Below the pieces are notes generated by a model. It was not told the DNA's origin, did no database searches, and was given only the letters and a program-made list of their open reading frames with translations. From positions 32,001-96,000 of IMG/VR virus record IMGVR_UViG_3300045988_163643: a DNA stretch of 64,000 nucleotides; one strand, 5' to 3'. Each line of letters begins with the position of its first letter. The first letter of the stretch is position 1. Origin of the DNA: a virus. Both the position numbers and the translations under genes were made by a program. Positions 1,605-56,897 of the stretch are shown here, piece by piece.

Positions 1605-1648
1605 AAATATCTCTCCAATCTTTTTATAATTTATTTTATTTTATATAT

Positions 1649-1677
1649 ATTATACTATAAAACTTATTAAAAGTCAA
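1649..1677 (-). promoter_or_regulatory. class I cassette promoter
   Basis: TTGACT-17-TATAAT on the minus strand, upstream of the FtsH-like gene. Confidence 0.6.
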
Positions 1678-1712
1678 ATAATTTTCTGAAAATTTATTTT
1701 ATTTATAATATC

Positions 1713-2267
1713 CTACAATTTATCTAATTCCTCTTGTAATCTTTTTATTTGGTTTTCTATGTCTTTTATCTTTGCTTTTCTTTTTTCTTCTTCTTGGTCT
1801 ACTTTTATTTTATAAAATTTATCTTTATAATCCCATAAATCTTTTTGTTTTCCATTAAACTCTTTACAACCTAAATCATATGCTTTCTCTATACCAATAA
1901 ATGGTGCATCCCAATCGCAATGTTCACCTGTACATCCATATCTATAGTCATAACCTTTATCGTTTTCAGTGCAATAACAATATCCTTCCATAATTTCTTT
2001 GTATCCAAAAACTAATCTATATTGATAAAGAAAGCTATCATTACTATCATATATATTTACAAAAAATATAAATTCCTCAAAAGGATTATCTGAAGTCATT
2101 GAATTAACATTATACCCATAATTTTCCATATCATAAAATAAATTTGCGAAACAATCATCATTCTCATATTGTTCTACAACTGCTAAATAAAATGAGGGTT
2201 CTATATTGTTTCTCATCAAATGTCTGTGAATTTCTTTTTTTAATTTACTCTTAATTTCTTCATTCAT
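1713..2267 (-). CDS. hypothetical protein, Cys/aromatic-rich
   Basis: 184-aa ORF with AAAGGAGAG SD before ATG and its own class I promoter. Contains CYCTENDKGYDYRYGCTGEHCDWD. No family recognised. Confidence 0.6.
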   Translation of the reverse strand: MNEEIKSKLKKEIHRHLMRNNIEPSFYLAVVEQYENDDCFANLFYDMENYGYNVNSMTSDNPFEEFIFFVNIYDSNDSFLYQYRLVFGYKEIMEGYCYCTENDKGYDYRYGCTGEHCDWDAPFIGIEKAYDLGCKEFNGKQKDLWDYKDKFYKIKVDQEEEKRKAKIKDIENQIKRLQEELDKL

Positions 2268-2297
2268 ATTAATCTCTCCTTTATCTTATTTACTTAT

Positions 2298-2326
2298 ATT
2301 ATACTATGCTTTTTATTAAAAGTAAA
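2298..2326 (-). promoter_or_regulatory. class I cassette promoter
   Basis: TTTACT-17-TATAAT plus the conserved ATAAGTAAATAAGATAAAGGAGAG leader. Confidence 0.55.
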
Positions 2327-2385
2327 TAAATAAAATAAACTTTTTACTTATTTTTAACACTTTTAATTAAAAGTAAAATAATAAA

Positions 2386-2404
2386 ATCCCCTACAAGAGG
2401 GGAA
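2386..2404 (-). terminator. intrinsic terminator
   Basis: CCCCT-cttgt-AGGGG followed by a U-run on the minus strand. Confidence 0.6.
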
Positions 2405-2427
2405 TTTACTACCATTTATCTTCTTTT

Positions 2428-2556
2428 TTAATAAATAAATAATAAAAGAAATCCTACCAACAACATTACTACGCCAAGAATCATTTCACCAACCATTAAA
2501 CTTATTATTCCTATAACCATGTTGCATATACCTACAGCAATACGAAACTTATCCAC
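2428..2556 (-). CDS. small hydrophobic peptide (42 aa)
   Basis: Hand-translated: AGGAGG then GTG, giving VDKFRIAVGICNMVIGIISLMVGEMILGVVMLLVGFLLLFIY. Paralog of 2567..2683. Below the track cutoff. Confidence 0.35.
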   Translation of the reverse strand: MDKFRIAVGICNMVIGIISLMVGEMILGVVMLLVGFLLLFIY

Positions 2557-2566
2557 TTTATACCTC

Positions 2567-2683
2567 CTAATTAATAAACAATAAAAGAAATACTGCTAAA
2601 AACATTGTAATAGCTAAACCTATTTTACCACACATTAAATCTATCACTCCTAGAATAACACAAGCCATAATTATTAAAAACAT
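2567..2683 (-). CDS. small hydrophobic peptide (38 aa)
   Basis: Hand-translated: AGGAGGG directly after the stop of 2700..3734, ATG at 2683, giving MFLIIMACVILGVIDLMCGKIGLAITMFLAVFLLLFIN. Shares the FLLLFI end with its neighbour. Confidence 0.4.
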   Translation of the reverse strand: MFLIIMACVILGVIDLMCGKIGLAITMFLAVFLLLFIN

Positions 2684-2699
2684 ATCCAATTTCCCTCCT

Positions 2700-3734
2700 T
2701 TATTGATTCTTATATTCTCTTTCAACTAACCACAATAAGCAAGAGTTTGCTAAGTCTAATATAGTATCGTCAATCTTTTTTACTCTTTGTTCAGGTATAT
2801 TTGGGTCACATAATGTTAATAATTTATTATATTCGTCAGTGATTCTTACTAAGAATGACACACAACCAAATTTTTCATAAGTATCAGCAAAACTATTCCC
2901 ATAATCATTATTTTTAGCTTTATATGTTTCTTCTAAATTGTTTAATAAATATTGGTATATACCTAATCTATCCATTTTAGGCGTTGTAGATTCTTTTATC
3001 TCGACAGGTTCTAACATATCTTTATGCCATGAATAATAATTTGTATCCTCAGGGTTAGCTATAGATTTTAAGCTATAATCTCCATCAAAATCTATATCAA
3101 CTATAACATACATTTTTCCTCTATATTCTAACATAGTCTCTAAAACTTCACAACCCCCATATATTTCCCCTTTTTGTAAGCCCTCTCTTACTTTTACAAT
3201 ATCACCTATTTCATATTCCATATTATTTTTCTCCTTTATTTCATGTTTTAAATCATCTTTCATTGTAACAGGTTCTACCATGTCCTTATGCCATACATAA
3301 GTATTATCTTTATCAGATAAATATAAATCACCAACTGTATCTATATAATATATTGTGTCAGTTGTTCCTCTATATTTTAACATACCCTCTACAACATAAC
3401 AATCACCATATTTTTCTCCCTCTTTTAAATTATCTTTTATTCTAACAATATCTCTTATTTTATAGTCCATATTATTTCCCTCCTTTATTCCATCTATATT
3501 AGTAGATTCTTTTAAATCATCTTTTATTACAACAGGTTCTAACATGTCTTCACTCCACACATAAGGATTATTATTATTCGCTAAATGGTAATTTCCATCT
3601 TCATCTATATTTTCTATAATATCAAGTGTTCCTCTAAACTTTAACATGTCATTTATAGAACTACATCCCCCATACATTTTATCTTCTTGTAAATCATCTC
3701 TTACTTTAACTAAATCACCTATTTTATATTTCAT
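2700..3734 (-). CDS. three tandem SH3-like beta modules fused to a DUF1599/MazG-like helical domain (tentative)
   Basis: 344-aa ORF with three ~83-aa repeats (YKIGDLVKVRDDL..YGG..MLKFRG..W..DMLEPV). C-terminal YKAKNNDYGNSFADTYEKFG..RITDEYNKL resembles the DUF1599/NTP-pyrophosphohydrolase-like fold. Confidence 0.75.
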   Translation of the reverse strand: MKYKIGDLVKVRDDLQEDKMYGGCSSINDMLKFRGTLDIIENIDEDGNYHLANNNNPYVWSEDMLEPVVIKDDLKESTNIDGIKEGNNMDYKIRDIVRIKDNLKEGEKYGDCYVVEGMLKYRGTTDTIYYIDTVGDLYLSDKDNTYVWHKDMVEPVTMKDDLKHEIKEKNNMEYEIGDIVKVREGLQKGEIYGGCEVLETMLEYRGKMYVIVDIDFDGDYSLKSIANPEDTNYYSWHKDMLEPVEIKESTTPKMDRLGIYQYLLNNLEETYKAKNNDYGNSFADTYEKFGCVSFLVRITDEYNKLLTLCDPNIPEQRVKKIDDTILDLANSCLLWLVEREYKNQ

Positions 3735-3764
3735 ACTAATCTCTCCTTTATCTTATTTACTTAT

Positions 3765-3793
3765 ATTATACTACACTTTTTATAAAAAGTAAA
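3765..3793 (-). promoter_or_regulatory. class I cassette promoter
   Basis: TTTACT-17-TATAAT plus the conserved leader. Confidence 0.55.
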
Positions 3794-3818
3794 GAGATAA
3801 AATAAAATTTATCTCTTT
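3791..3818 (-). terminator. intrinsic terminator after the helicase
   Basis: 11-bp stem AAAGAGATAAA/TTTATCTCTTT. Confidence 0.6.
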
Positions 3819-5391
3819 ATTGCATTAACATTCCTGTACTTACTTTTCCAGCATATCCATATTCTGTTAATCTTCCGAAACTATCCATTTGATACAATAA
3901 TACAAAATCTGTTCTTCCACTACGATTCTTATCACAAAATAACATTATATAATTTTTACTTTTATCTAAATAACCTTTCTTGTATTCATTTTGTTTATCT
4001 GTACCACCATTTTGACTATTGATTATTTTAAATTTCTTTTGTTTAAATGTTTTTTCAAATTTATTATATTCATAATAAAATGGGTCAATAAAGGCTTTGT
4101 TTTCAGGGTCTAATTCCCAAGGTCTAACCCTTCTTGCTAATAAAACACTATGAGCAACATCTAATACTTGTTTAGCAAAAGCAAGTTGAGAACCAGTTAG
4201 ATATGAAACTTTATCAGTACTTTTTAATAGTTGCATTGTCATAACTACTCCATATCCATTTTTTCTTCCCCATTTATCAAGTATTTTAGAATTATTAACC
4301 ATTTCTATCATCGCACTATCCATATCATCACTCTTAAAAGTATCAACCATTAAATAGTTATATCCTTCTGTCATTCCTAATTTATTAAAAACTTTAGTTA
4401 TTTTTTCAAAATTAAATTCTTCAACACAAACAAAAGTCATTTTTCCTTCAAATTTTTCTTTTATAAAATCATTAGCTTTTTCAAATATTTTATATTCTTC
4501 ATCTGTCAAATCTGCTTCAATTAACTTTTGTCTTGTAATAGTTTTACAATGGAATACATTGCTACATACATAACTAACCATAAGTCTTTTTAAATATATT
4601 GATTCAAATTCATTTGACACATACATAACTTTATTTCCACTTTCAACTAATGCCATAGCTACATTGCATAACATAGTAGATTTACCAACTCCTGTTGTTG
4701 ATGCTATTACATGAATACCTAATCCTCTTGATAAGCCCACCAATTCTTTATCTAAATATTTAAATGATTGTATATATCTATCTTCATTTTCTTCAGTCTT
4801 CCATGTCATTGCTATATCGAAATGAGAAGTATCACTAATTTCTTTTTCTCTTACTTTTCTTTTTTCTTCTTCAGTAAAATGTAAACTCTGTAATTTAAAT
4901 TCTTGAAATTCAACATCTACTCCAACATCTAATATAATTGACTGCATAAGGCTACTAAATTGAGTGCAATTTAAATATGGTGCTTCCTCTATTGGTATTA
5001 TATTTCTTCCACTTATTTCATATTTTCTTTCCAAATTAATACCTAAATCAATATATCTTTCTATTAATATCATTTTTTTCAAACTATCAATATATGATTC
5101 TATATTCTCTACATTAGCTTTTAAGTTTAATAAGTTTTCTATTCTTTCATATCCACCATAATTATTAAAAACTTCAATTAATCCATTACTTCCAACAAAT
5201 CCACTAACAGATAATTCATCAATTTCTTTTACCTTTTTAGCTAACTCATAAGCTAATGAAAAGAAAAATCTTGTATCATTTAAAGAAAAATATTCTGACC
5301 TTAATTCATATTCACTTGTTAATGTTAAATCTTGGTATATACAAGATAGTATAGCACATTCAGTATCTAATCTTTCTTTTGAAATTTTCAT
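3817..5391 (-). CDS. DnaB-like replicative helicase
   Basis: 524-aa ORF with Walker A ASTTGVGKST, YLMVDTF Walker-B-like motif, MTMQLLKS and a DnaB-type N-terminal helical domain. Confidence 0.7.
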   Translation of the reverse strand: MKISKERLDTECAILSCIYQDLTLTSEYELRSEYFSLNDTRFFFSLAYELAKKVKEIDELSVSGFVGSNGLIEVFNNYGGYERIENLLNLKANVENIESYIDSLKKMILIERYIDLGINLERKYEISGRNIIPIEEAPYLNCTQFSSLMQSIILDVGVDVEFQEFKLQSLHFTEEEKRKVREKEISDTSHFDIAMTWKTEENEDRYIQSFKYLDKELVGLSRGLGIHVIASTTGVGKSTMLCNVAMALVESGNKVMYVSNEFESIYLKRLMVSYVCSNVFHCKTITRQKLIEADLTDEEYKIFEKANDFIKEKFEGKMTFVCVEEFNFEKITKVFNKLGMTEGYNYLMVDTFKSDDMDSAMIEMVNNSKILDKWGRKNGYGVVMTMQLLKSTDKVSYLTGSQLAFAKQVLDVAHSVLLARRVRPWELDPENKAFIDPFYYEYNKFEKTFKQKKFKIINSQNGGTDKQNEYKKGYLDKSKNYIMLFCDKNRSGRTDFVLLYQMDSFGRLTEYGYAGKVSTGMLMQ

Positions 5392-9348: not shown

Positions 9349-10404
9349 CTATTTATTATAATTTTTATATTCTTTAATTAGTTTCTTTGTATAATTGAAT
9401 AAACTATTCGAATCTTTTCTTTGTATTTCAACATCATACCACTCCATAGGTGTTCTTGAATAAAAATCTCCAAACCCTCCTGGTGCAACATGACCATTAT
9501 GTACTCCCATACCTATTTCAGTACCATAATATATACATATATCATTATTTTTAAAAGAGAACATTATTTCCAAAGCCTGTTTTATTTTATTAATATCATG
9601 ATTAAAACTTACAGATATTCTCGTTTGGTCGTGATTATCGAGAAAAATAACAGACCTTTCTTCATTATTGTCAATAACTAAATGTTGTTTATTTATAACA
9701 GTATTTTTAACCCACCCCGATTCCTGGAAGTTAAATGTCTTCATACCTGTTTCTCTTGCATACATATCACTTACTTCAAAACTATCCCATGCTTCCCCTA
9801 CAAGATAAGCATTAGGTTTTATTGAATAAACCATATCACAGAACCATTTCCAAAATTCAATTTTATCGCCACTTGCAAAAATAATAGCATCAAGTCTAAA
9901 TCCATCTACTTTATGTTCTAATAACCAAAATCTAATTACACTCTCAATCATTTCTCTAACTTTTTCAGATTGATTATTAAGCTGGGGCATCTGTTCTGAC
10001 CACGGAGCTAAATACCATTTTTTATTACTGTAACAGTATTTCCATTGGTTATCTATTTGATAATCATTCCAAAAGTAGCAGTCATTTTTTCCTTCTATAC
10101 TCTCTTGAAATAATTTATGATGATATCCAGTATGACATAAAACTAAATCTAATAATACTTCTAAACCATTTTCATGTGCCTTTTTAATAAAATTATCAAA
10201 ATCTTCTAAAGTCCCATATTGTTCTCTAATTTTAAAATATGAATCTACAGAATACCCATGTTCATTATCAGATGGATGAATAGGAGTTAACCATAAAGTT
10301 GTAATTCCCAATTCTACAAAATAAGGTATTTTTTCAGTTAAATCTTTAAAATCTCTACAGAATGATGGGAAAAATATTTCGTATATTATTCTTTTTTTAT
10401 TCAT
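9349..10404 (-). CDS. GH13 alpha-amylase-family catalytic domain protein
   Basis: 351-aa ORF carrying all four GH13 regions: DLVLCHTG (I), DGFRLDAI (II), LVGEAW (III), FLDNHDQTR (IV). No signal peptide and no C-terminal beta domain. Confidence 0.8.
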   Translation of the reverse strand: MNKKRIIYEIFFPSFCRDFKDLTEKIPYFVELGITTLWLTPIHPSDNEHGYSVDSYFKIREQYGTLEDFDNFIKKAHENGLEVLLDLVLCHTGYHHKLFQESIEGKNDCYFWNDYQIDNQWKYCYSNKKWYLAPWSEQMPQLNNQSEKVREMIESVIRFWLLEHKVDGFRLDAIIFASGDKIEFWKWFCDMVYSIKPNAYLVGEAWDSFEVSDMYARETGMKTFNFQESGWVKNTVINKQHLVIDNNEERSVIFLDNHDQTRISVSFNHDINKIKQALEIMFSFKNNDICIYYGTEIGMGVHNGHVAPGGFGDFYSRTPMEWYDVEIQRKDSNSLFNYTKKLIKEYKNYNK

Positions 10405-12910: not shown

Positions 12911-14128
12911 CTACAATAAATCTACCTTGAATGGATGTAACCCTACACCCTCTATTCCATCAGCAAATGCTTTAGGAAATACTTTTTTAATAATCTGATA
13001 AGAACCATTTACATCAGCATTTATTTTTATACCTTTATTACTTACAAATAATCCCCTATGTCTTCTTCTATTCTTATTATAATTCTCCTTAATAGGCAAT
13101 TCATTATCTAAAAATGAAGTCCCACTTGTATAACTTTCTTCAGTAATAATAACTTGTATTCCAAATTCTTCTGCTTTATATTGTACCTTCTGAATAAAAC
13201 TATAATAAGGTATACTAATAAAATTTTGATTAACTTTTTTACTCATTTTACTATTTTGTTTCCAATTCTTATTATTACCTATGATAATAGTATTAATTTC
13301 ATTATTTCTACAATAATCAACTACAAATCTACTAGCTTTATGAATATAATCTTCAACTTTATTATTTCTCTTAAATGTTAATTCTCTCATTCTATTAGTA
13401 TAATCTAACTTATTCATTTTCTTTGCTATTGATTTATAATAAGCTATTTGCTTATTATAATATTGATTTATTGATTTTAGACCCTTACCATTTATTACTA
13501 ATGGGATTAATTCACAATTATTAGTTATAGTTACAAAGTTATCTAAACCTAAATCAATACCTATATATCTATCATTATCAATCAATTCTTTAACATCATC
13601 AATTTTATAAACTACTTCAGCAACAATATATTTGTCTTTAGGTATAAATCTCACTTGTTGTAAATTATTTACTTTAGATTTCAAATAAAAACCTTTGAAT
13701 GATTTAGGAAATTTAATTATACCTTTATTAATTTTACAATTTACATAAGTTAATATTAGAATATTTCTATCATTTTTAGATTTATACTTAGGTAATTTAG
13801 GTCTACCTAAGTATTTATTTGGGTTTTTATTATAATCTTTTATACTAGCGAAAAATGATTTCCAATTTTTATCTAATAATCTTAAACACTGTTGGCTTGT
13901 TGCAGAGGATGGCATATTTCTATAATCAAAATCTTTACCTTCTTGTTTTAATATTTTGTCTAATTCATTATATCTTAACCATTTATTGTTATTTATAAAT
14001 TCTTGTCTAATGATATAATTCGCATAATTATATAGATTTTTAGATTTATAACAAAATTCATCTAGTAGACTATAATATTTATTATTTTGTTTAATAATAT
14101 GTTTTTCAACTCTATTGATTTTTATCAC
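12911..14128 (-). CDS. tnpB: TnpB (IS200/IS605-family OrfB RNA-guided nuclease), zinc-finger-less, no tnpA
   Basis: 405-aa ORF with RuvC-I IGIDLGLDNF, RuvC-II ITEESYTSG and RuvC-III NADVNGSYQI. There is no CxxC..CxxC between II and III. The GTG start abuts the SD, so the exact start is uncertain. Confidence 0.8.
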   Translation of the reverse strand: MIKINRVEKHIIKQNNKYYSLLDEFCYKSKNLYNYANYIIRQEFINNNKWLRYNELDKILKQEGKDFDYRNMPSSATSQQCLRLLDKNWKSFFASIKDYNKNPNKYLGRPKLPKYKSKNDRNILILTYVNCKINKGIIKFPKSFKGFYLKSKVNNLQQVRFIPKDKYIVAEVVYKIDDVKELIDNDRYIGIDLGLDNFVTITNNCELIPLVINGKGLKSINQYYNKQIAYYKSIAKKMNKLDYTNRMRELTFKRNNKVEDYIHKASRFVVDYCRNNEINTIIIGNNKNWKQNSKMSKKVNQNFISIPYYSFIQKVQYKAEEFGIQVIITEESYTSGTSFLDNELPIKENYNKNRRRHRGLFVSNKGIKINADVNGSYQIIKKVFPKAFADGIEGVGLHPFKVDLL

Positions 14129-14782: not shown

Positions 14783-14791
14783 AAAATTATT

Positions 14792-14869
14792 GCAAGGAAA
14801 TACATTATTTTTAGATGATGAAAGGAATTATAATTTTAAGCAATATTCCCGTTTCCTTGCTTCTCCTTT
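14792..14869 (-). promoter_or_regulatory. 5'-UTR hairpin separating an SD-like GAAAGGAGAA from the AUG of 14315..14782
   Basis: Perfect 9-bp stem GCAAGGAAA (14792-14800) / TTTCCTTGC (14852-14860). The SD-like element lies at 14861-14869 and the AUG at 14782. Confidence 0.5.
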
Positions 14870-14898
14870 CTAAATTATTAATTTGTTTATTTACTTAT

Positions 14899-14927
14899 AT
14901 TATACTATTCCTATTATCAAAAGTCAA
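14899..14927 (-). promoter_or_regulatory. class I cassette promoter
   Basis: TTGACT-17-TATAAT. Confidence 0.65.
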
Positions 14928-14939
14928 CATTTTTTATTT

Positions 14940-16589
14940 TTAAAATTTATTAGCTTTCCATTCTTCCCTCAATTCTTTTAATAAGTCTTTAAATTCGTCT
15001 TCTTCATGATAATTATTAAAATCCATATCAAAATCTATTTCATTTTGTTCGTTTTGAACAACTTTTCTACCTAATATTTCGTTTTCAACTTCTCGCATAA
15101 TTTCTAATTTGTCTTTCTTAAATTTATTTGTTTTAATTTTATCTAAATTTTTATAATCATGATTTTGTATAAGAAAAACTATTTCACTTATATCGTCCAA
15201 TTTATATCCTAATCTTAATAACACTTCCATACTTAAATAAGCAGATATTTTACTATTACCTCTTAAATCATTGAAACATAATGGTTTTCCACAATCATGC
15301 AATGCAATTGCCATTAATGTATTTTTATTTTTAGTTAATTTAGCACCTTCTTTTAATGATTTATACAAATGATTATTTAAATAATAATTTCCATCTTTAT
15401 CTATATGTTCATCACTCATATGAAAACCTATATTATTTTTTAATCCTACTTTTTTTAATAATCTATTAAATTCTATAAAATCAATGTTAGTAAACTTATT
15501 ATCAATATTGTATGTAATTTCATTATTGGAATTATCTACATATCTTATCTCATCAAATCCTTCATTTATATCAGGCAAATTAAAAAATCTTAATTTTTTA
15601 TAAATATACTCATAATCTTTATTATAATTCACTATACAATCATCAAAATTTTTATATATAAACACACCAATTATTTTAGATGCTAAACAACCTAATTTAT
15701 CGATTAATGATTTTCTATTGTGCTTATTCATATTACACATATCAATTATCACGTTTTTACATTGCATTAAAAGTTCACTAGCTTCAGAAATCATAGTTTG
15801 AAATAAATTTTCTTCTTTAACTCCTTGTTTTCTTAATTTATTAGCAGATATAATAAATATAGAGTCAAATTCAACTTCTAATTGTTTACAATATAATGTT
15901 TTACCCGAATTAGGAAGTCCTGTTAATATAAATAATTGTCTTTTATTAGCATAAACATTAGATAACTTTTTTAACGCCTTTTGCTCTAATCTAGTAACGT
16001 GACTTCTATCTACACCTAATAAAGTAGCTACTTCTTGTTGAGTAGGAAAATTTTCTCCATATCTTAAATTTATAACTTTTTGTTCAGCGTTAGTTAATAC
16101 TTCTTTCATACTTTCACGTATTTCTTTATTTAGAAGATTATTTTCAGCAGATTCTTGAACATTTATTTTTTCATCAAAAAGACAATCTTCTATAACAACC
16201 GAGTCATCATCTTTTTTGGTTTCTATTGTGGTATTCATACTACACTCTTTATATTTAGCTCTTTTCACATAATTAGCAGTACGCAAAACCATTCTTAGTT
16301 CATTAGAAACACACGTTGCTAAATATGTACTCCAATTTGTATCTCCCAATATATCATATGTGTCTACAGCTTTTAACAACCCTATCATTCCAGTTTGTAT
16401 AAAATCTTCCCTATCTTGTTCATTCAATACAAATTTATTAACTATCTTAGATACTAATTTTGTATTATGTAAAATTATGTTATCCCTAATTTCTTTTGAC
16501 CCAGTTTCATTATATTCTTTTAACAAATCCATCATTTCATCTTTAGTTAAATTTTTATATTCAAACAAGTCTTTATTCAATTTAATCAT
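14940..16589 (-). CDS. sigma-70-family factor fused to a P-loop (polynucleotide-kinase-like) domain and an HD phosphohydrolase domain
   Basis: Track ORF is 14940..16691. I moved the start to ATG 16589 (AAAGGGGA SD). Sigma regions 2-4: DFIQTGMIGLLKAVDTYD and QQEVATLLGVDRSHVTRLEQKALKKL. Then LFILTGLPNSGKT and VIIDMCN. Then FHMSDEH, ALHDCGKP, QNHD. Confidence 0.8.
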   Translation of the reverse strand: MIKLNKDLFEYKNLTKDEMMDLLKEYNETGSKEIRDNIILHNTKLVSKIVNKFVLNEQDREDFIQTGMIGLLKAVDTYDILGDTNWSTYLATCVSNELRMVLRTANYVKRAKYKECSMNTTIETKKDDDSVVIEDCLFDEKINVQESAENNLLNKEIRESMKEVLTNAEQKVINLRYGENFPTQQEVATLLGVDRSHVTRLEQKALKKLSNVYANKRQLFILTGLPNSGKTLYCKQLEVEFDSIFIISANKLRKQGVKEENLFQTMISEASELLMQCKNVIIDMCNMNKHNRKSLIDKLGCLASKIIGVFIYKNFDDCIVNYNKDYEYIYKKLRFFNLPDINEGFDEIRYVDNSNNEITYNIDNKFTNIDFIEFNRLLKKVGLKNNIGFHMSDEHIDKDGNYYLNNHLYKSLKEGAKLTKNKNTLMAIALHDCGKPLCFNDLRGNSKISAYLSMEVLLRLGYKLDDISEIVFLIQNHDYKNLDKIKTNKFKKDKLEIMREVENEILGRKVVQNEQNEIDFDMDFNNYHEEDEFKDLLKELREEWKANKF

Positions 16590-16680
16590 CCCCTTTACAC
16601 TTATAACATATTTTTTTAATAAATAATTTAAGCATATTATAAATAGAATAGCAATTTTACTATTATTACTTCTATTACAA

Positions 16681-18282
16681 TTAATTTTCATAGAAAACTT
16701 TATATAATTTATATGTTTCTATTAAATCACGTTTACTAATTATTTCCATTGGACTATGCATGCCTAATGTAGACACTCCAGCATCCATTGTCTCCATACC
16801 TCTTATTCCAAAGAACATAGCAACCGTTCCCCCACCGCCTTCACTAACTTTAACTGTATCAACTTGATATTTCACATCATTATCAATACATAAATCTTTT
16901 ATATATTCTCTCATTTCTATACTTGCATCATTTCCTCTTTTTAATCCAGTAAATGGCACTAAGGCAACACCATTGCCACATACTGCTTTTGCACTATCTT
17001 CAAAATGACTACTATAATTACTATCAAATCCACCAGTTACATCTGCACTAATTACCTTTGTATTTCTCATAAATTCTCTAGCTAATAACATATTTCCATT
17101 TGCTAAAGTAAGGAATATATCATCTATAAATTGAGTTTCAGCACCACTCATTTGTCCACTTCCAGTTTCTTCATAAGCAGTAAATAAAGCTATCTTTGTT
17201 ATTTTATTAGGTTTACTAGTTAATATAGCTTCTAATTCAGCATAAGCACAACTCTTATCATCATGTCCATATCCCATTAATAAATCTTTATCTAATCCCA
17301 TTTCTAATGTTTTAAAATAAGGTACAAAACTTAAGTCAGCTAATTCAAAATTCTCTTTTGTTATTCCATATTCTTTTTCTAACATTTCAAATAGTTCTTC
17401 TTTATTTCCATTACTCATTCTTACTAATAATTTATCATAAGATAAGTCTTTCACTTCTTTTCTACCTTTTAGGTGAGGTAATAAACTAGTTATAGAAAAT
17501 AAATGTCCTTTTTCTCCAGTATTTATATATTTTATTTCATCATCTACTTTTATTTTCCCAACCATTACAAATGGTCTATCTAACCATAATTGTGGTATTA
17601 TTCCACCATATGGTTGTGTTTTTATAAAAGTACCATCATCATTAGATACAATTGGATTACCTACTATAACATCTAATCTAGGACTATCAATATGACTTAC
17701 TATTAAATTAGCACCTTTTGATATGTCCTCGCCTATTTCTATTAAAGCTATCAATTTATCTCTAAATTCAAATATAACCTTATCTCCTACATTAAAGTAT
17801 TTTGAATGATTATAAGATTTATATCCTACATCTTCTGCTTTATCCTTTATATATTTTAATACTTGTGTTTCATGCAATCCTTCTTCTAATAAATATTTAT
17901 ATTCATCTATAAAATTATCTTCTTCATTATTATCTTGTGTTTTATACAATATTTTTCCTAATAAATATTTTACTTCTTCATCAATTATTTCTTTTAAGGT
18001 ATCATATTTTATATCAGGTGAACATTTTGAATATACAACATTATCTCTAAATATTATTTTTGTTCTTGATTCTTTAGCTACAATAGTACGAGTGTTTAAG
18101 TCATAAATCTTTTTCCATTGAGTTGGTAATTCTTTTCCATTCACCCAATGATAACCTAATTCTTCTAATGATATTAACACTTGTTCAATAATTTCTTTAT
18201 CATTGTTGACTTCAATTATAATTTGTTTATCATTTTTTTCACTTAATTCTTCTATTAAATTTGTTAGTCTTTTTATACTCAT
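16681..18282 (-). CDS. M18-family aminopeptidase with extra N-terminal domain
   Basis: ATG 18282 is 8 nt after AAAGGAGAG. Motifs VSHIDSPRLDV, GYGHDDKSCAYA, YEETGS, LGMHSPMEI. About 125 aa of unassigned N-terminus. Confidence 0.7.
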   Translation of the reverse strand: MSIKRLTNLIEELSEKNDKQIIIEVNNDKEIIEQVLISLEELGYHWVNGKELPTQWKKIYDLNTRTIVAKESRTKIIFRDNVVYSKCSPDIKYDTLKEIIDEEVKYLLGKILYKTQDNNEEDNFIDEYKYLLEEGLHETQVLKYIKDKAEDVGYKSYNHSKYFNVGDKVIFEFRDKLIALIEIGEDISKGANLIVSHIDSPRLDVIVGNPIVSNDDGTFIKTQPYGGIIPQLWLDRPFVMVGKIKVDDEIKYINTGEKGHLFSITSLLPHLKGRKEVKDLSYDKLLVRMSNGNKEELFEMLEKEYGITKENFELADLSFVPYFKTLEMGLDKDLLMGYGHDDKSCAYAELEAILTSKPNKITKIALFTAYEETGSGQMSGAETQFIDDIFLTLANGNMLLAREFMRNTKVISADVTGGFDSNYSSHFEDSAKAVCGNGVALVPFTGLKRGNDASIEMREYIKDLCIDNDVKYQVDTVKVSEGGGGTVAMFFGIRGMETMDAGVSTLGMHSPMEIISKRDLIETYKLYKVFYEN

Positions 18283-18315
18283 ATTCATCTCTCCTTTATT
18301 AACTTATTTACTTAT

Positions 18316-18344
18316 ATTATACTATTATTCTTATTAAAAGTCAA
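18316..18344 (-). promoter_or_regulatory. class I cassette promoter
   Basis: TTGACT-17-TATAAT. Confidence 0.65.
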
Positions 18345-18363
18345 TAATTATTTAATAAAAAAA

Positions 18364-18395
18364 TAGAAGTAGTAATTTTATAACTACTACTTCTA
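18364..18395 (-). terminator. intrinsic terminator (duplicated module)
   Basis: TAGAAGTAGTA/TACTACTTCTA stem. The same module recurs at 19358-19389. Confidence 0.65.
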
Positions 18396-18407
18396 CTGCG
18401 ATAATTA

Positions 18408-18619: not shown

Positions 18620-19282
18620 TTAATAATTTATAGCATTTTGTTTATTCATAAAGAAGTGTATCCCACTTGCACATTCATACCATCTGTTTTCATCAAAATT
18701 ATCTACTTTTACTATTTCTCCAACTTTATATATAAAATTAATATCATAATCACTAGGAGTACTTTCTATTTTTTCACCTGTATCTATTTTTTCTATGTCT
18801 AATACTTTAGCTTTATCACATCTACACTTAAGAGTTGTAGCACTACTTCTTTTGCTATCTTCTAATATTAATAATTTAACGATATACTTTCCAGCTTTTT
18901 TATATCCTATGAAACTACCTTCTTCAGGACAAGCTAAATTATATCCTATAGTATACATATTTGTTTTAATATTAGTTAAATTTGCATTATTTAAATTAGA
19001 ACTATATAAATTAGTACCATTTAAATTAGCACCACTTAAATTAGCATTATATAAACTAGCACCACTTAAATTAGCACTATTTAAATTAGCATATTTTAAA
19101 TCAGCGTATCTTAAATCAGCACTATATAAATCAGCACATCTTAAATCAATATTATTTAAATTAGCATATCTTAAATCAACACCTTTTAAATTAGCACCTC
19201 TTAAATCAGCACATTCTCCACCTTCACCATTTAACCATAATTCATGATTCTTTAATATTTTATCTAATTTTTCTCTTTCCAT
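18620..19282 (-). CDS. pentapeptide-repeat protein with globular C-terminal domain
   Basis: 220-aa ORF with ~17 consecutive A(D/N)LxX repeats (ADLRGANLKGVDLRYANLNNIDLRCADLYSADL...). The C-terminal ~110 aa end in CASGIHFF. Confidence 0.85.
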   Translation of the reverse strand: MEREKLDKILKNHELWLNGEGGECADLRGANLKGVDLRYANLNNIDLRCADLYSADLRYADLKYANLNSANLSGASLYNANLSGANLNGTNLYSSNLNNANLTNIKTNMYTIGYNLACPEEGSFIGYKKAGKYIVKLLILEDSKRSSATTLKCRCDKAKVLDIEKIDTGEKIESTPSDYDINFIYKVGEIVKVDNFDENRWYECASGIHFFMNKQNAINY

Positions 19283-19312: not shown

Positions 19313-19341
19313 ATTATACTATTTCTATTATTAAAAGTCAA
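19313..19341 (-). promoter_or_regulatory. class I cassette promoter
   Basis: TTGACT-17-TATAAT. Confidence 0.65.
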
Positions 19342-19357
19342 TAGATAAAATAAAAAA

Positions 19358-19389
19358 TAGAAGTAGTAATTTTATGACTACTACTTCTA
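19358..19389 (-). terminator. intrinsic terminator (duplicated module)
   Basis: Same 11-bp stem as 18364-18395. Confidence 0.65.
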
Positions 19390-19469
19390 CTAGAACTACT
19401 ATTATCTAAATAATTCACTTATATTGATAAATATCTAGTAAAGAAAGTAAATTTATATAGATAATACAA

Positions 19470-20381
19470 TTAATGTTTAACATTTATATAATCTAAAACT
19501 TCATTTAATCCTAAGTGTTCCATACAATATTTATACAATTTAGGATGAGTTTGACTTAATCTCTGAAATCTATTAGGCTCTTTTTCTAAATGGCATCCAA
19601 ATCCACAGAATATACAACCTGTTCTTTTCTCACCAGTAGTTCTCAACATTCCATCTTCACCTTTAATTATGTCTCCATAAACACTCGCTATTTCTAAATT
19701 ATTTTCAACTATATACTGAAGTATATCTTGTTCAGTCCAAAATCCCATTGGCTGACTTCTACCTGTATTAAAAGCATTGCATCCTGTCATAAGATATGCA
19801 GATTCTCTTTGTTGTCCTTCTTCTGCCATAGTTGCTATGAAAGGTACTTTTCCACTTTTCTTTTCATATTTTTTAAATGGTTTTTTCTTTAATTCATTGC
19901 AACATTCATCAGAAATTTTAAATGGAGCATCTAATAAAAATTCCCATTTTCCCTTATTAAACCTAGACCCCTTTTCTAATCCTCGTATTTGTCTTACTCT
20001 TAATGTGTTTTTTCCTTCTTTTATATTTTTTCTAGCCAATCTAACACAGTTTGCAACTGACTTACTTATAATTGGATATCCTTTTTCTTCTACAACTTGT
20101 TTAAATGTTTTTTCAGGTTTAATTATTGTTACATTTTCTTTTGTTTTAACAAATTCTCTTATTTCAGGAAATTCTAATCCAGTATCACTAAATACTGCTT
20201 CAACATCAGGATACATTTCTCTTACTATATGTAAAAGAACTGTACTATCTTTTCCACCACTAAAACTTATATACACCTCTCCATTATAATGTTCATACCA
20301 TTCCCTTATGCGTAATTTTGTTTTTTCGACTTTCATCCATAATGGATACGCTTGTAACATTCTTAATTCATCCTTGGTCAT
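19470..20381 (-). CDS. PAPS-reductase/DndC-like PP-loop protein
   Basis: 303-aa ORF with SFSGGKDST PP-loop and C-terminal CIFCGFGCH cluster. Confidence 0.8.
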   Translation of the reverse strand: MTKDELRMLQAYPLWMKVEKTKLRIREWYEHYNGEVYISFSGGKDSTVLLHIVREMYPDVEAVFSDTGLEFPEIREFVKTKENVTIIKPEKTFKQVVEEKGYPIISKSVANCVRLARKNIKEGKNTLRVRQIRGLEKGSRFNKGKWEFLLDAPFKISDECCNELKKKPFKKYEKKSGKVPFIATMAEEGQQRESAYLMTGCNAFNTGRSQPMGFWTEQDILQYIVENNLEIASVYGDIIKGEDGMLRTTGEKRTGCIFCGFGCHLEKEPNRFQRLSQTHPKLYKYCMEHLGLNEVLDYINVKH

Positions 20382-25565: not shown

Positions 25566-26426
25566 TTATATTTTTCTTTTTAGATTATATACAGAATATA
25601 CATTTGCTTTTATATTCATATTATTTAATAAACCTTTGATTTGTTTTTCACTTAATTCAATTCCAGTTTCAAGTTCAAAGTTTTTGATTTTATCTGCAAC
25701 ATAAGAATTATATAAAGAAGTAGTTGATATTCCTTCAACATCTATTCTTCTTAATATTCTATTTATTTTATCTCTACCTGCATTTTCTTTAATCTTATCT
25801 AATCCGTCATTATTAAATTTATTTTTTCTATTTTTCCATAGATATGAATTATTTTCATTATAGTAGTAGTAATCATAATTACTTTTTTCTTTAACATACA
25901 TTTTATATCCACGTTCTTTGGATGCTTTATCAATTATTCCCATAGTATAATCATCTAAAGTTATAGTTTTATCTTCTAATTTTATTTCATTTCTATCAAC
26001 ATTAATATCATTCATTTTTATATTAATGATTTCTTCACCTTTTAATCCATTTCTTAATAATAGTACTATAGCTTTATCTAAATAATTTTCAAATATATTA
26101 ACACCCATTATAACTTCTTCATAAGGGATATATCTTAATGTTCCATTTTCTATATCTAATAAATCATTTTTATTTATATCTCTATATACTTTATTTCCTA
26201 TAAAGATTAAATATTTCTTTAATAAACTCCATTTAACTGCTAATGTATTATATTTTCTACAGTCTAAAGAAGATAACATATTTAAACAATCTTCTTTACT
26301 CCAATCTTCTATTGTTCTGTTTATTGTTGTTTCATGTGCTTCTATATTTTTGAACAATGTAATATATGATTTTCTAGTACTTTCACTCATTTCTTTTTCT
26401 TTTAAAAATCTACTTATATTATTCAT
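25566..26426 (-). CDS. tyrosine-recombinase-fold protein lacking the H-x-x-R and His catalytic residues
   Basis: 286-aa ORF with SAM-like N-domain (KWSLLKKYLIFIGNK) and LLLRNGL (Arg I kept). ISTTSLYNSYV stands where HxLRH is expected. Confidence 0.6.
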   Translation of the reverse strand: MNNISRFLKEKEMSESTRKSYITLFKNIEAHETTINRTIEDWSKEDCLNMLSSLDCRKYNTLAVKWSLLKKYLIFIGNKVYRDINKNDLLDIENGTLRYIPYEEVIMGVNIFENYLDKAIVLLLRNGLKGEEIINIKMNDINVDRNEIKLEDKTITLDDYTMGIIDKASKERGYKMYVKEKSNYDYYYYNENNSYLWKNRKNKFNNDGLDKIKENAGRDKINRILRRIDVEGISTTSLYNSYVADKIKNFELETGIELSEKQIKGLLNNMNIKANVYSVYNLKRKI

Positions 26427-26443
26427 AACATTCTCTCCTTTTA

Positions 26444-27325
26444 TTAATTATTTGCCTTTTGTTTGGTCATATTTCTAATATCATAAACATTTTTAGTGAT
26501 ACCAAATTCATATTTTAAATAATCCCTTAATTCACTTTGAGTTAAATTTCTTTCTATTTTATGTTGATGTTCAATTACTTTATCAACTACATGACTAAGG
26601 GTAAGGTTACTTAATATGATAGTGTTATCATTTAATTCTTCTTTTATTTTTTGAAGTCTACCTCTCATGCCACTTATTTTTAAGTGTGATAATCCATCAT
26701 TAGTCCATTTAGTTCTTCTAGTCTTAAATAAATATTCACTATCCATATTATATACTATTATTTTTTCATAACTTCCTAATGCTACATATTCTTTTTCTTC
26801 TGTTGCTCTTTTAACTAGATACATTGTATAGTCGTCTATTTTCTTATTATATATCATATTTCTTTTAAAATCAATATCTTTTACTTTTAATTTTACTAAA
26901 TCTTCTGCTTCAAATTTCATTCCTATACCATTTCTAGCTAAAAACAATAAAGCTTTATCAGAATAGTTTTCTAATTTGCTAACTAATTTTATTAAATCTT
27001 CTTTATAAATATATCTTTTTTCTTCATATTCTTTATTGATTTCTATGATTTTATTCAAATCTTTTTTTGTAATTAATTTTATATTTTTATTTCCTATGAA
27101 GTCATAATATCTTTTTAATAAACTCCATTTGCTATTGATAGAATTATATGTACCCTTATCTATGCAATGATTAAGTAATAATGTAAATTCTTCTTTAGTT
27201 TCAATATCTTCTATGTTTTTATTCAATACTTTTTCTAATTCTGTCATTTTTGTAAATAAACCTTCATACATGTTATATGTATTTTCATTATTAATTGTTG
27301 CTAAAAATATTTCTCTACACTTCAT
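26444..27325 (-). CDS. paralogous degenerate tyrosine-recombinase-fold protein
   Basis: Track ORF is 26444..27334. ATG 27325 is 9 nt after AAGGAG. KWSLLKRYYDFIGNK, FLARNGI, and LTLSHVV in place of HxxR. Confidence 0.6.
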   Translation of the reverse strand: MKCREIFLATINNENTYNMYEGLFTKMTELEKVLNKNIEDIETKEEFTLLLNHCIDKGTYNSINSKWSLLKRYYDFIGNKNIKLITKKDLNKIIEINKEYEEKRYIYKEDLIKLVSKLENYSDKALLFLARNGIGMKFEAEDLVKLKVKDIDFKRNMIYNKKIDDYTMYLVKRATEEKEYVALGSYEKIIVYNMDSEYLFKTRRTKWTNDGLSHLKISGMRGRLQKIKEELNDNTIILSNLTLSHVVDKVIEHQHKIERNLTQSELRDYLKYEFGITKNVYDIRNMTKQKANN

Positions 27326-27426
27326 ATATACCACTCCTTTTATATTTTATCTATATTATAGACAAATTTTAGAAGGGATATACAAAATGATAAAGATTTT
27401 TTTATTTTTTTATCTTATTTACTTAT

Positions 27427-27455
27427 ATTATACTATTGTTCTTATTAAAAGTCAA
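27427..27455 (-). promoter_or_regulatory. class I cassette promoter
   Basis: TTGACT-17-TATAAT. Drives the two degenerate recombinase genes. Confidence 0.65.
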
Positions 27456-27463
27456 TAAAAAAA

Positions 27464-27481
27464 GAGAGAAAATTTTCTCTC
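27464..27481 (-). terminator. cassette terminator
   Basis: GAGAGAAAATTTTCTCTC palindrome plus a U-run. Confidence 0.7.
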
Positions 27482-27491
27482 ATTTTAAAAT

Positions 27492-28424
27492 TTATAAATC
27501 AAATATATTTATTTTTTCCATAGATTCTTGTATATCCTTACGTTGTTGGATGTAGTATTTCATTGATGTATTGATTGTCGAGTGTCCAAGCGTATCCTTT
27601 ATTTCTTGTAAAGTGATATTTGGATTTTCTCCCATTTTTGTACCTATTGTATGTCTTACATTATGAAAATGAACTCTAGGAACTCCAGCTATGTCACAAC
27701 AGTCATACCAAATTTTTCTTATGCCTTGCGTTTTTAATTGATTAAAATTTCTATCTGTAAGCAAATATTCTCTATTTGGGTTATATGATACTAATTCTTT
27801 TATAAGTTCAACAACTTCATTATTACAATTTGTGCTACGACCAATACGACCCTTGTTACCTTTAGAACGCACCATTATTTTATTATTATCTTCTAATTTT
27901 AAATCTTCTATTTTTATTCTACTCATTTCTCCAATTCTTAATGCAGTTGAAAATACTAATTTTACAATTACTTTATTTCTTAAATTTATATAATTACCAT
28001 GACAATTAAATTCTTCTTTATCTGTTGCTTGTAATATTGCTCTTATAATATCGTCATTAAATGCTTTATCTCCTTTATAATCATTTTCCCCTTTTTCATT
28101 AATCTTAGGAAATCTATATAGGCAATTGTCTTTTAAAAATTCTTCATTGACTAGAAAATTATAAAAACTACTCATTTGTTTTATTTTTTTATTTATTGTT
28201 GCTATTGAAATATCATCTTCATCTTTTTGTTTATTAATCCAATTAAACCAAAACTCCTTATCCATATTAATGAATTCACTAACTTCATTTATTTTTTCAT
28301 CTTTAACAAATTTTTGTAGTGTACTAACATAACTTTTAATTGTAGCTTCGCTTTTGTTTAATAAATTTAAATATTTTACATATTTAAATACACAATTATC
28401 CATACTCATATTTTTATCTAACAC
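27492..28424 (-). CDS. tyrosine recombinase / integrase (XerC/D-like), catalytic residues intact
   Basis: FSTALRIGE (Arg I), HFHNVRHTIGT (HxxR), LGHSTINTSMKYY (His, Tyr). Start is GTG 28424 (9 nt after AAGGAG) or 28433/28409. Confidence 0.85.
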   Translation of the reverse strand: MLDKNMSMDNCVFKYVKYLNLLNKSEATIKSYVSTLQKFVKDEKINEVSEFINMDKEFWFNWINKQKDEDDISIATINKKIKQMSSFYNFLVNEEFLKDNCLYRFPKINEKGENDYKGDKAFNDDIIRAILQATDKEEFNCHGNYINLRNKVIVKLVFSTALRIGEMSRIKIEDLKLEDNNKIMVRSKGNKGRIGRSTNCNNEVVELIKELVSYNPNREYLLTDRNFNQLKTQGIRKIWYDCCDIAGVPRVHFHNVRHTIGTKMGENPNITLQEIKDTLGHSTINTSMKYYIQQRKDIQESMEKINIFDL

Positions 28425-28458
28425 ATCAACCACTCCTTTTATTTATTTATCTATAATA

Positions 28459-29739: not shown

Positions 29740-30312
29740 TTAATATAATTCCAAATATTTATGTTTTATTTTTTTTATTGCTCTATTGAAAATTTGATTT
29801 ACATTTTGTTTTGATAAATGTAAAATATTACCCATTTCCTCAAAAGTATAACCAGCTAAAAATAATCTTATAATTTGCCCACTTCTTTCACTTATTAAAT
29901 CTGCACATTTTATTATTTCTTTAATTAAATCTTTTTTATACATAGTTTCTACAACTTCATTTTCTAAATCATAATCATATTCTATTAATTCTAATAATGT
30001 TTTACTTTCTTCTTCATGTACAATTTTTCTATCTAAACTATCAACTATTGAATCTCCTTTTCTTTTCATTGTATTTTTATTTTGATAAAATTTTTTACAA
30101 CTCCATTTAATAGAATTTTCTATAAAAACAGATTTTCCCATTACTTCATCTAATTTATCAAGGTCTTTTAATAAGTTCAATGTTATTTCTGATTTTAAGT
30201 CCTCAAGACTAAAATAATTATTTTTTGCATTACCATAATAAAACATTCTCGCATATTTATCTATCAGCATTTCATAATCATTAATTATATTAACCTTTAA
30301 TTCATTATTCAT
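29740..30312 (-). CDS. sigma-70-family (ECF-like) factor
   Basis: Region 4 HTH SGQIIRLFLAGYTFEEMGNILHLSKQNVNQIFNRAIKKIK. ATG 30312 is 9 nt after GGAGA. Confidence 0.65.
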   Translation of the reverse strand: MNNELKVNIINDYEMLIDKYARMFYYGNAKNNYFSLEDLKSEITLNLLKDLDKLDEVMGKSVFIENSIKWSCKKFYQNKNTMKRKGDSIVDSLDRKIVHEEESKTLLELIEYDYDLENEVVETMYKKDLIKEIIKCADLISERSGQIIRLFLAGYTFEEMGNILHLSKQNVNQIFNRAIKKIKHKYLELY

Positions 30313-30337
30313 ATACACACATCTCCATTTATAATTT

Positions 30338-32938: not shown

Positions 32939-32974
32939 TTTCAATCCCCCTATCATTCTTATTTACTTACTTAT

Positions 32975-56621: not shown

Positions 56622-56662
56622 TAATATGTATAATGTATACAATATAATGTACTATGTATACG

Positions 56663-56680
56663 TATGAGTAACTGTTCATA
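56663..56680. promoter_or_regulatory. 18-bp palindromic operator (variant)
   Basis: TATGAGTAACTGTTCATA. Confidence 0.45.
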
Positions 56681-56717
56681 TATTCATATATATACTGTAT
56701 AGTGTATAATGTTTATT

Positions 56718-56778
56718 GTATACAATATAATATACTATGTATGATATATTATGTATGTTGTACTATGTATACAATATA
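56718..56778. repeat. 61-bp direct repeat, copy 1
   Basis: GTATACAATATAAT..GTATACAATATA. 59/61 identical to 56837-56897. Confidence 0.85.
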
Positions 56779-56836
56779 ATGTATAGTGTACTATGTACTA
56801 TGTATGGTGCATGATATGTAGTGTACTATGTATGGT

Positions 56837-56897
56837 GTATACAATATAATGTACTATGTATGATATACTATGTATGTTGTACTATGTATACAATATA
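56837..56897. repeat. 61-bp direct repeat, copy 2
   Basis: See 56718-56778. Confidence 0.85.

Follow-up and report, generated by a model that had tools for sequence, protein, structure and literature searches.

A sporulation-type sigma factor fused to a predicted kinase-dead Pnk-HD module in an uncultured gut phage lineage

Results

The fused open reading frame

We describe here a phage gene in which a sigma factor is continued, within one open reading frame (ORF), by a two-domain module related to RNA end-healing enzymes. The gene lies in a 64,000-nucleotide stretch of virus DNA (positions 32,001 to 96,000 of IMG/VR record IMGVR_UViG_3300045988_163643), which we call the window and to which all coordinates refer. 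A preliminary description, made from the letters alone, had placed a sigma factor, a kinase-like domain and an HD domain in a single uninterrupted frame, and this is confirmed: all three parts are encoded on the minus strand at 14940-16589. Residues are numbered throughout on the 549-residue protein that begins at ATG 16589. The parts of the gene are as follows.

14940..16589, minus strand: whole fused ORF including the stop codon, 549 codons from ATG 16589 in a single uninterrupted frame
15945..16553, minus strand: sigma factor domain, residues 13-215, SigK/SigE-like, group 3, without pro-sequence (NCBIfam, PHROG and PDB matches)
16275..16475, minus strand: sigma region 2, residues 39-105, core binding and -10 recognition (Pfam PF04542, Sigma70_r2, 39.2 bits against a cutoff of 24)
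15963..16100, minus strand: sigma region 4 helix-turn-helix, residues 164-209, -35 recognition and beta-flap contact (PF04545, Sigma70_r4, 36.7 bits against 24.1)
15534..15938, minus strand: polynucleotide kinase (Pnk)-type P-loop kinase-like domain, residues 218-352, predicted kinase-dead (family profile, match to the Clostridium thermocellum enzyme CthPnk, AlphaFold2 and Foldseek)
15897..15920, minus strand: Walker A motif (P-loop) GLPNSGKT, residues 224-231, intact (motif read)
15831..15848, minus strand: degenerate phospho-acceptor motif S-A-N-K-L-R, residues 248-253, where the family has S-S-D-x-I-R (column audit)
14985..15422, minus strand: HD-like domain, residues 390-535 (family alignment; the family profile matches HD structures)

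The 549-codon frame that had been proposed is indeed uninterrupted, but its start probably lies slightly downstream. An AAGGGG ribosome-binding site abuts ATG 16589 and stands 9 nucleotides ahead of TTG 16580; the true start is likely this TTG (16578-16580), which gives a protein of 546 residues, and gene callers delimit the relatives at 546-549 residues. The longest version of the frame runs to 583 codons, from 16691 on the minus strand, and its 34-residue N-terminal extension was entertained as a pro-sigma-like sequence. The 34 upstream codons are open in the window only, four other lineages carrying stop codons and a 28-nucleotide indel there; the extension is thus not conserved and therefore not a pro-sequence.

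The fusion itself is genuine and no artefact. With sequences from Logan, ENA, JGI and NCBI the protein forms a cluster of 63 members at 90% identity or above, and every member read is fused; one member of the cluster is DAL24019.1, annotated "Caudoviricetes sp.", and the contigs of the cluster reach about 198-200 kb. The same single ORF in the same neighbourhood was recovered in all eight further contigs fetched from different projects, including a Hadza gut project in ENA (contigs L001, L004-L009 and L012, from Logan, ENA and, in one case, the JGI collection). The junction near 15940-15960, for which a sequencing error had been raised as a possible cause, is accordingly the same in every cluster member read and in every fetched contig, and among the listed relatives of the C-terminal part none carries a sigma domain.

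A complete sporulation-type sigma factor

By its profile matches, the N-terminal 215 residues are a complete sigma factor of the sporulation type (SigK/SigE-like, group 3), with both region 2 and the region 4 helix-turn-helix above their Pfam cutoffs; the preliminary description had likewise read a complete sigma factor with both regions. The general sigma70-ECF (extracytoplasmic function) superfamily model TIGR02937 matches residues 35-211 at 89.5 bits (cutoff 42.9), and PHROG 351 (sigma factor) matches at E=1e-33. The best models, though, are those of group-3 sporulation factors: the NCBIfam SigK subfamily model aligns to residues 13-215 at E=1e-40, followed more weakly by SigE, SigF, SigG and SigB. 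Solved sporulation sigma factors in the PDB are also found (sigmaF 1L0O, E=1e-18; sigmaK 8VJL, E=1e-13). The protein is neither a SigK nor a SigE orthologue by cutoff, scoring 122 bits against the 298.65 of the SigK equivalog TIGR02846 and 94 against the 339 of the SigE model. Alignment to the SigK and SigE models begins at profile position 30-31, that is, without the cleavable pro-sequence.

The C-terminal module belongs to a phage Pnk-HD family

Taken alone, the C-terminal part is marginal in Pfam: AAA_33 scores 19.2 bits against 27, KTI12 22.8 against 22 and HD (PF01966) 16.5 against 22 (E=0.011). A hidden Markov model (HMM) built from 60 stand-alone Pnk-HD relatives, with the query left out, nevertheless recovers it at 101.5 bits (E=8.6e-31). 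With tblastn, residues 207-479 are about 25% identical to genes annotated "polynucleotide kinase" or "AAA ATPase" in Bacillus phages of about 165 kb. An exhaustive phmmer search with residues 205-549 retrieved 369 proteins; among the 150 listed, nearly all are 140-360 residues long and the match starts near their own N-terminus. A profile search retrieved more than 516 proteins, the best 120 of which are all 294-344 residues long and all carry AAA_33, most with KTI12 and/or HD as well in precomputed Pfam annotation. No sigma domain was seen among the 150 listed phmmer matches or the best 120 profile matches.

A phmmer search of the C-terminal part alone against the PDB returned noise only, and the family profile was needed to reach solved structures:

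Clostridium thermocellum Pnkp kinase domain (CthPnk, 4GP7): E=7e-23
PSTK: E=9e-19
Pnkp1: E=2e-12
T4 Pnk: E=4e-10
Class II A/CCA-adding enzymes, C-terminal region (HD half): E=6e-14
Cas3 HD (HD half): E=3e-4

Structure prediction agrees with these matches. The AlphaFold2 model of residues 205-549 has a predicted local distance difference test (pLDDT) score of 80.5 and a predicted template modelling score of 0.78, the kinase part lying mostly at a pLDDT of about 90 or higher, and Foldseek places it with PNKP, PSTK, CthPnk and Pnkp1 at probability 1.00; fungal RNA kinases are fold neighbours as well. The best matches among viral models span both domains: they are gp264 of Bacillus phage G and an "AAA domain protein" from Siphoviridae. 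The earlier assignment of this part to kinase- and HD-like folds, and its kinship to RNA end-healing enzymes, thus hold on profile search and on structure prediction alike.

The homology indicates that the 335-residue module descends from a large family of stand-alone Pnk-HD proteins of about 300 residues in Firmicutes phages. In Bacillus phages Kirov (QOV08297.1) and vB_BanS-Thrax1 (UUV45986.1) the stand-alone gene directly follows a gene annotated as RNA ligase, and in a Paraclostridium contig (P0167) it directly follows an Rnl1-type RNA ligase (PF09511). Because of this homology and this adjacency to RNA ligases, the ancestral function would be the healing of RNA ends for ligation, and a comparative overview of RNA repair in jumbo phages agrees with such an ancestry (PMC7824862).

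The kinase site is degenerate and the HD core is kept

The fused copy was audited column by column against 60 and 264 stand-alone relatives. The family aligns to CthPnk such that D250 corresponds to Asp38, R253 to Arg41, T285 to Thr80 and the deleted lid to 120-RTDRQVE-126. The general base, which is Asp38 in CthPnk and Asp35 in T4 Pnk (PMC3902929), is replaced by Asn250 (15840-15842) in a column that holds Asp in 60 of 60 and in 257 of 264 relatives and never Asn. A six-residue gap removes both arginines of the lid R-x-x-R, which are Arg in 100% and 92% of the family (the lid Arg in 251 of 264); the corresponding Arg120 and Arg123 of CthPnk hold the gamma-phosphate (PMC3902929). Further changes in the kinase half are S249 to Ala, E255 to Gln, R269 to Glu, T285 to Cys and K306 to Ile. 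Residues kept are G224, G229 and K230 of the P-loop, R253, D283, N286, R292, P339, E343 and G344. The Mg-site Asp is thereby retained, as is the acceptor-site Arg in its invariant column: Arg253 is the equivalent of CthPnk Arg41, which is essential (PMC3902929) and which, with Thr80, anchors the first phosphodiester (PMC3902929).

In the HD half, H407, H431-D432, G434, K435, H477 and D531 are kept. H407, H431-D432 and D531 align to invariant family columns, so that the H...HD...D metal-ligand motif is present; D531 sits in YHEED (family LHEAD), after an insertion of about 30 residues. H445 is changed to Asn (15255-15257) where the family is 100% His, and M478 to Asp. The motifs GLPNSGKT, VIIDMCN and LHDCGKP occur where the preliminary description had located them (the HD dyad at 15294-15299), but the HD domain around that dyad is longer than first drawn, running on to about 14985 to include its last ligand. 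Of the "NHD" that had been read as an HD motif, only the His, H477, is a conserved residue. The string FHMSDEH is likewise present, but its role depends on the alignment: the first HD His is Tyr or ambiguous (Y403), and the segment is modelled at pLDDT below 60.

Because the general-base Asp, the lid arginines and other family-invariant residues are lost, the fused domain is predicted to be dead as a polynucleotide kinase. It is also predicted to retain the nucleotide-binding parts of the fold, and perhaps those that bind the 5' end. The Asn at the general base is the change made in the arrested mutant CthPnk-D38N, in which GTP-Mg and a 5'-OH oligonucleotide are bound in a Michaelis complex but no phosphate is transferred (Das et al., 2013, PMC3902929).

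These replacements bear directly on the function first proposed for the gene, that of an active 5' kinase and 2',3'-phosphoesterase tethered to RNA polymerase, linking transcription with the repair of RNAs that host anticodon nucleases have cut. Such an enzyme would fit with the homology to a Pnk-HD family that adjoins RNA ligases (Rnl1-type where typed), with the retention of the P-loop, the Arg41 equivalent and the core HD ligands, with the strong purifying selection on the module described below, and with the anti-restriction-type genes nearby (methyltransferases and a pentapeptide-repeat protein). Against it, the Asp-to-Asn change at the general base is by itself sufficient to arrest CthPnk, both lid arginines are deleted, a conserved Glu has become Gln and a conserved Thr Cys, one HD His that is invariant in the subfamily is Asn, and no RNA ligase (among the ORFs scanned), second Pnk-HD or tRNA gene was found in the 64-kb window. 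We therefore consider an active repair enzyme unlikely.

All parts of the protein are under purifying selection

Ratios of non-synonymous to synonymous substitution rates (dN/dS, Nei-Gojobori) were computed for the window against the lineage most divergent from it, at a dS of about 0.23: the sigma part gives 0.26, the HD part 0.25 and the kinase-like part 0.01. The kinase-like part shows 15 synonymous changes and 1 non-synonymous change in this comparison, has a dN/dS range of 0.01-0.04 and is more constrained than the rest of the protein (Fisher p=2e-4). All three parts are under purifying selection, and the kinase-like domain is the most conserved. Replacements that are isosteric (D to N, E to Q), taken with so low a dN/dS, point to a non-catalytic function that has been kept and speak against decay.

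The same data leave almost no room for an assembly or sequencing artefact, or for a decaying pseudogene born of a recent deletion between two neighbouring genes. One could invoke either from the restriction of fused relatives to a single lineage at 90% identity or above and from the loss of several catalytic residues. An ORF of 546-549 residues, though, recurs in the 63-member cluster and in all fetched contigs, across several projects and assemblers; all parts have a dN/dS within 0.01-0.26, the minimum falling in the very domain that is "degenerate"; and the replacements are isosteric and not random. Because the ORF is recurrent and under purifying selection, we regard a chimera or a pseudogene as excluded for practical purposes.

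The fusion is confined to one lineage

In IMG/VR no homologue of the fusion was found, whether the query was the protein by itself, the aligned variants of the lineage or eight peptide patterns taken from it, and a scan of GTDB genomes gave no match to a fused or split relative. The JGI metagenomes yielded one more fused copy, 91% identical, and two plain sigma matches. Megablast of the locus against phage and plasmid collections gave no match, and a word-indexed protein search with the full protein or its C-terminal part returned only the query's own cluster and one distant relative. Fused relatives may be hidden under other representatives of the 50%-identity representative library, because that library seems to hold the lineage only as a 124-residue fragment (P0017). 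Two tblastn matches annotated "Bacteriophage sp." (H13 and H1) seemed to extend past the sigma part; they proved to be RpoD-like and SigE/K-like genes on high-GC contigs, with no extension.

The preliminary description knew of no sigma factor carrying such a module, and no fusion appeared outside the lineage in the listed phmmer and profile matches or in the IMG/VR, GTDB and JGI scans. As far as the data go, the fusion is restricted to one uncultured gut phage lineage.

An accessory gene in an early, host-takeover region

The window covers the early region of a phage with low GC content (22-28%), and nearly all of its genes are on the minus strand. The host is probably a spore-forming member of the Clostridia, since the DnaB-like helicase of the phage is closest to those of large Clostridioides difficile phages (31-36%). 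Three features define the setting of the fusion gene.

16681..18288, minus strand: M18 aminopeptidase gene, directly upstream of the fusion gene (Pfam Peptidase_M18, E=1e-55)
18316..18344, minus strand: sigmaA-type promoter TTGACT-17-TATAAT, most likely driving the M18 peptidase and fusion genes
14783..16595, minus strand: presence/absence cassette made up of the fusion gene and its 3' spacer, missing from relative L025 (blastn synteny)

About 35 intergenic spacers on the minus strand between roughly 8900 and 51600 carry consensus sigmaA-type promoters, many of them near-identical to TTGACTTTTAATAAGAnTAATAGTATAAT, so that most early genes have a promoter of their own; examples, which fall into two or three sequence classes, are 18316-18344, 19313-19341 and 14899-14927 (all minus strand). 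A near-identical terminator hairpin, AGTAGAAGTAGTAGT...ACTACTACTTCTATT with a T-run, precedes several of these promoters (18362-18397, 19356-19391). No consensus sigmaA promoter lies between the M18 and fusion genes, and the two are probably co-transcribed. The fusion gene, lacking its own promoter and following an M18 gene driven by TTGACT-17-TATAAT, is probably expressed early by the host sigmaA holoenzyme.

The window also holds three other sigma-like genes, all on its minus strand: 29740-30318 (192 residues, region 4), 31314-32099 (261 residues, regions 2 and 4, ECF-like) and 32189-32956 (255 residues, weak region 2). In sister phages from IMG/VR (contigs of 147-204 kb), the M18 peptidase is kept at 85-91% identity and an AAA_24 protein at 95%. 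The last two sigma-like genes, which are the two searched for, are retained there at 83-92% in the absence of the fusion gene; it therefore seems that the phage has its own transcription programme with several sigma factors.

The presence of the fusion gene varies within this group. In L025, homology extends to 16596, just before the start codon, after which a DNA methyltransferase gene replaces the fusion gene behind the same upstream spacer. In L018 and L021, homology ends with the M18 gene (about 16680) and resumes at 12844 (blastn synteny). Since synteny with the sister phages breaks at the fusion gene and no homologue was found in them, we conclude that the gene is discrete, swappable cargo, carried in a host-takeover region of variable content, rather than the phage's core sigma factor.

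These findings invite a different view of the sigma part, namely as a docking device or decoy that occupies RNA polymerase and blocks host sigma factors, leading to host shut-off and not to the use of new promoters; the bulky C-terminal module would then hinder productive -35 binding or deliver an HD hydrolase to the polymerase. In favour of this view, the gene is early and accessory, sits in the host-takeover region and is dispensable in sister phages, where at least two other sigma-like genes are kept that could run phage transcription. In addition, the AlphaFold2 models join the last sigma-4 helix (residues 195-213) to kinase strand beta1 (residues 218-223) through a 4-residue link, so the module is attached almost rigidly to the recognition helix. 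By their scores, however, regions 2 and 4 are ordinary sigma regions that recognise DNA, and purifying selection acts on them; a decoy would have no need to conserve the helix-turn-helix of region 4.2, and nothing points directly to a steric conflict. We think it improbable that the protein acts in this manner.

Two observations on the neighbourhood may be added. The early region carries anti-restriction-type genes, among them methyltransferases and a pentapeptide-repeat protein. On plasmid pRUMAL02 of Ruminococcus albus 7 (L015, locus 1481-4606), an M18-type aminopeptidase gene stands immediately upstream of spoIIGA-sigE; the adjacency of M18 and sigma genes in the phage may be the relic of a captured host aminopeptidase-sigma segment, or a coincidence.

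Discussion

We propose that the fusion protein is an accessory phage sigma factor carrying an exapted, kinase-dead module that binds nucleotides or RNA ends and by which the activity of the sigma factor would be tuned or gated, a reading to which we give about even credence. The sigma half would bind the host core RNA polymerase and redirect it to its own class of promoters, which could be host promoters of the sporulation type or promoters of the phage. Because the module begins only 4 residues after the sigma-4 recognition helix, it would be placed beside sigma-4, close to the RNA exit, the beta-flap and the -35 element. In that place the module would most likely bind a nucleotide, a nucleic-acid end or both, without catalysis or with hydrolysis by the HD domain at most, and it could tune, gate or localise the activity of the sigma factor. 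C-terminal regulatory extensions on ECF sigma factors offer a precedent (PMC8999054).

A more specific version of the proposal is that the module works as a substrate trap, sensing broken RNA ends (5'-OH or 2',3'-cyclic phosphate) or a nucleotide signal and switching the sigma factor on or off. Here the ends or the signal would be generated when host anticodon nucleases or abortive-infection RNases fire. If this were true, the protein would be a one-component damage-sensing sigma factor through which a phage reprogrammes transcription, or host sporulation, in response to host defence. We consider this version quite doubtful; for the nucleotide signalling that the preliminary description had also suggested, we found no specific support.

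Several points weigh against the proposal of an accessory sigma factor under the control of a kinase-dead module. The sigma half has low confidence in the full-length AlphaFold2 model, built on a shallow alignment, which bears on the placement of the module relative to sigma-4. No target promoter could be assigned to the fusion sigma factor in the window. The loss of kinase residues is compatible with another catalytic solution or another substrate, and an HD domain with its four core metal ligands could be an active hydrolase. A ligase or an intact Pnk could be encoded elsewhere in the genome of about 198 kb, outside the 64-kb window, and the absence of the gene in sister phages rests on peptide-pattern scans and one syntenic region.

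Phage-borne sigma factors of the sporulation type have been described before (Schwartz et al., 2022, mSphere, PMC9429907; PMC10294663), and the sigma half of the fusion is likewise a phage-borne, group 3, sporulation-like factor. Published examples alter the host sporulation programme when expressed (PMC9429907), and gut phages also carry them (PMC10294663), so that a human-gut phage origin is shared with the fusion, whose host is probably one of the Clostridia. In contrast, the tested phage factors are sigF/sigG-like, whereas the fusion is closest to SigK/SigE, and neither PMC9429907 nor PMC10294663 mentions a fusion or a kinase on such a factor; descriptions of such phage factors have to date been of plain sigma factors.

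The nearest relatives of the module, the stand-alone Pnk-HD proteins of Kirov, Thrax1 and Paraclostridium, share with it the fold, the order of kinase then HD, and about 25% identity over both domains. They differ in being of about 300 residues, in lying beside an RNA ligase and in keeping all catalytic residues, whereas the fused copy has lost residues and has no ligase neighbour. Among characterised end-healing enzymes, the partner phosphatase is of the calcineurin type in CthPnkp and of the HAD type in T4 Pnk, and the fusion has an HD domain in its place. The HD-Pnk of Runella slithyformis (Munir and Shuman, 2017, cited in PMC6097658) is similarly a single end-healing protein with an HD phosphoesterase and a P-loop 5'-OH kinase, encoded by a gene that overlaps a putative ligase gene at the latter's 3' end. 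The Runella enzyme is active and bacterial, with the HD domain N-terminal and with no sigma domain. The HD-Pnk architecture to which the preliminary description had likened the module therefore has its domains, as described in the literature, in the opposite order to ours.

In functional terms the best analogy is provided by ECF sigma factors with a C-terminal extension (PMC8999054), in which a sensory or regulatory domain directly follows sigma-4, as it does in the fusion. Those proteins are cellular, belong to group 4 and carry extensions of unrelated folds, and the fusion is a group-3-like phage sigma factor with a two-domain module derived from an enzyme. MzaA, of the MZA anti-phage system, also holds a segment similar to sigma-70 region 2 within a larger multidomain protein of phage-host conflict. 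Membership in that family, suggested by a weak region-2 match in PADLOC, was rejected: the match covers only residues 27-95 at 54 bits against a cutoff of 800, and MzaA has another architecture without Pnk or HD.

Phage sporulation-type sigma factors, Pnk-HD and HD-Pnk end-healing enzymes, and C-terminal sensor domains on ECF sigma factors are thus already known. What is new is the fusion of a group-3-like sigma factor to an enzyme-derived, predicted kinase-dead two-domain module, which was found neither elsewhere in our searches nor in the literature cited here. We know of no non-ECF sigma factors with large fused sensory or enzymatic domains. An RNA-repair enzyme that was recruited onto a sigma factor, stripped of its kinase chemistry and kept under strong selection would represent a natural exaptation of a pseudoenzyme into the transcription machinery. 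Were nucleotides or RNA ends bound by the module, the protein would be a compact, testable example of direct ligand control of a non-ECF sigma factor, and could connect phage transcription to host defences that target RNA. A concrete biochemical prediction also follows from the natural D-to-N "Michaelis-complex trap".

Other features of the window

Ten copies of a composite element lie on the minus strand between 48066 and 52628, about 30-50 nucleotides upstream of small genes. Each consists of a GC-rich hairpin, CAGTT, the inverted repeat GAAAGTTAAnnACTTTC and ATGAnAATTAA. The element could represent a phage-specific class of promoters or operators, and it could not be tied to any sigma factor of the window.

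Between 54600 and 58750, about 4 kb are devoid of ORFs of 90 residues or more (the longest has 77) and are densely filled with degenerate 7-, 14- and 28-nucleotide repeats, including iterons similar to TGTATAATGTATA (for example at 56624-56890 and 57501-57605). This segment coincides with the only GC-skew reversal of the window and may be a replication origin or a partition region.

A gene of the TnpB / IS605 OrfB type with a Cas12f-like TNB domain (12911-14128, minus strand) is inserted after a gene for a 155-residue protein. The fetched stretch of L006 has no TnpB, an RNase H gene coming right after the 155-residue gene, and in L007-L009 TnpB is found at a different place. Given this absence and relocation, the element appears to be mobile within the phage group.

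CotH proteins are a family of spore-coat protein kinases, and a CotH domain is unusual in an apparent surface or structural protein of a phage. The gene at 58750-61989 (minus strand) encodes such a protein, 1079 residues long, in which LamG and Ig-like (Big_2, Big-like) domains accompany a CotH kinase-like domain.

Other unusual cargo genes found among 18620-19282, 19470-20381, 25566-28433 and 9349-10404 encode a pentapeptide-repeat protein with DUF5758, a possible DNA mimic, as well as PAPS-reductase-like and alpha-amylase-domain proteins. The same set includes a run of three consecutive tyrosine recombinases, of which two have MrpR-like N-terminal domains; this hints at a plasmid-like prophage lifestyle.

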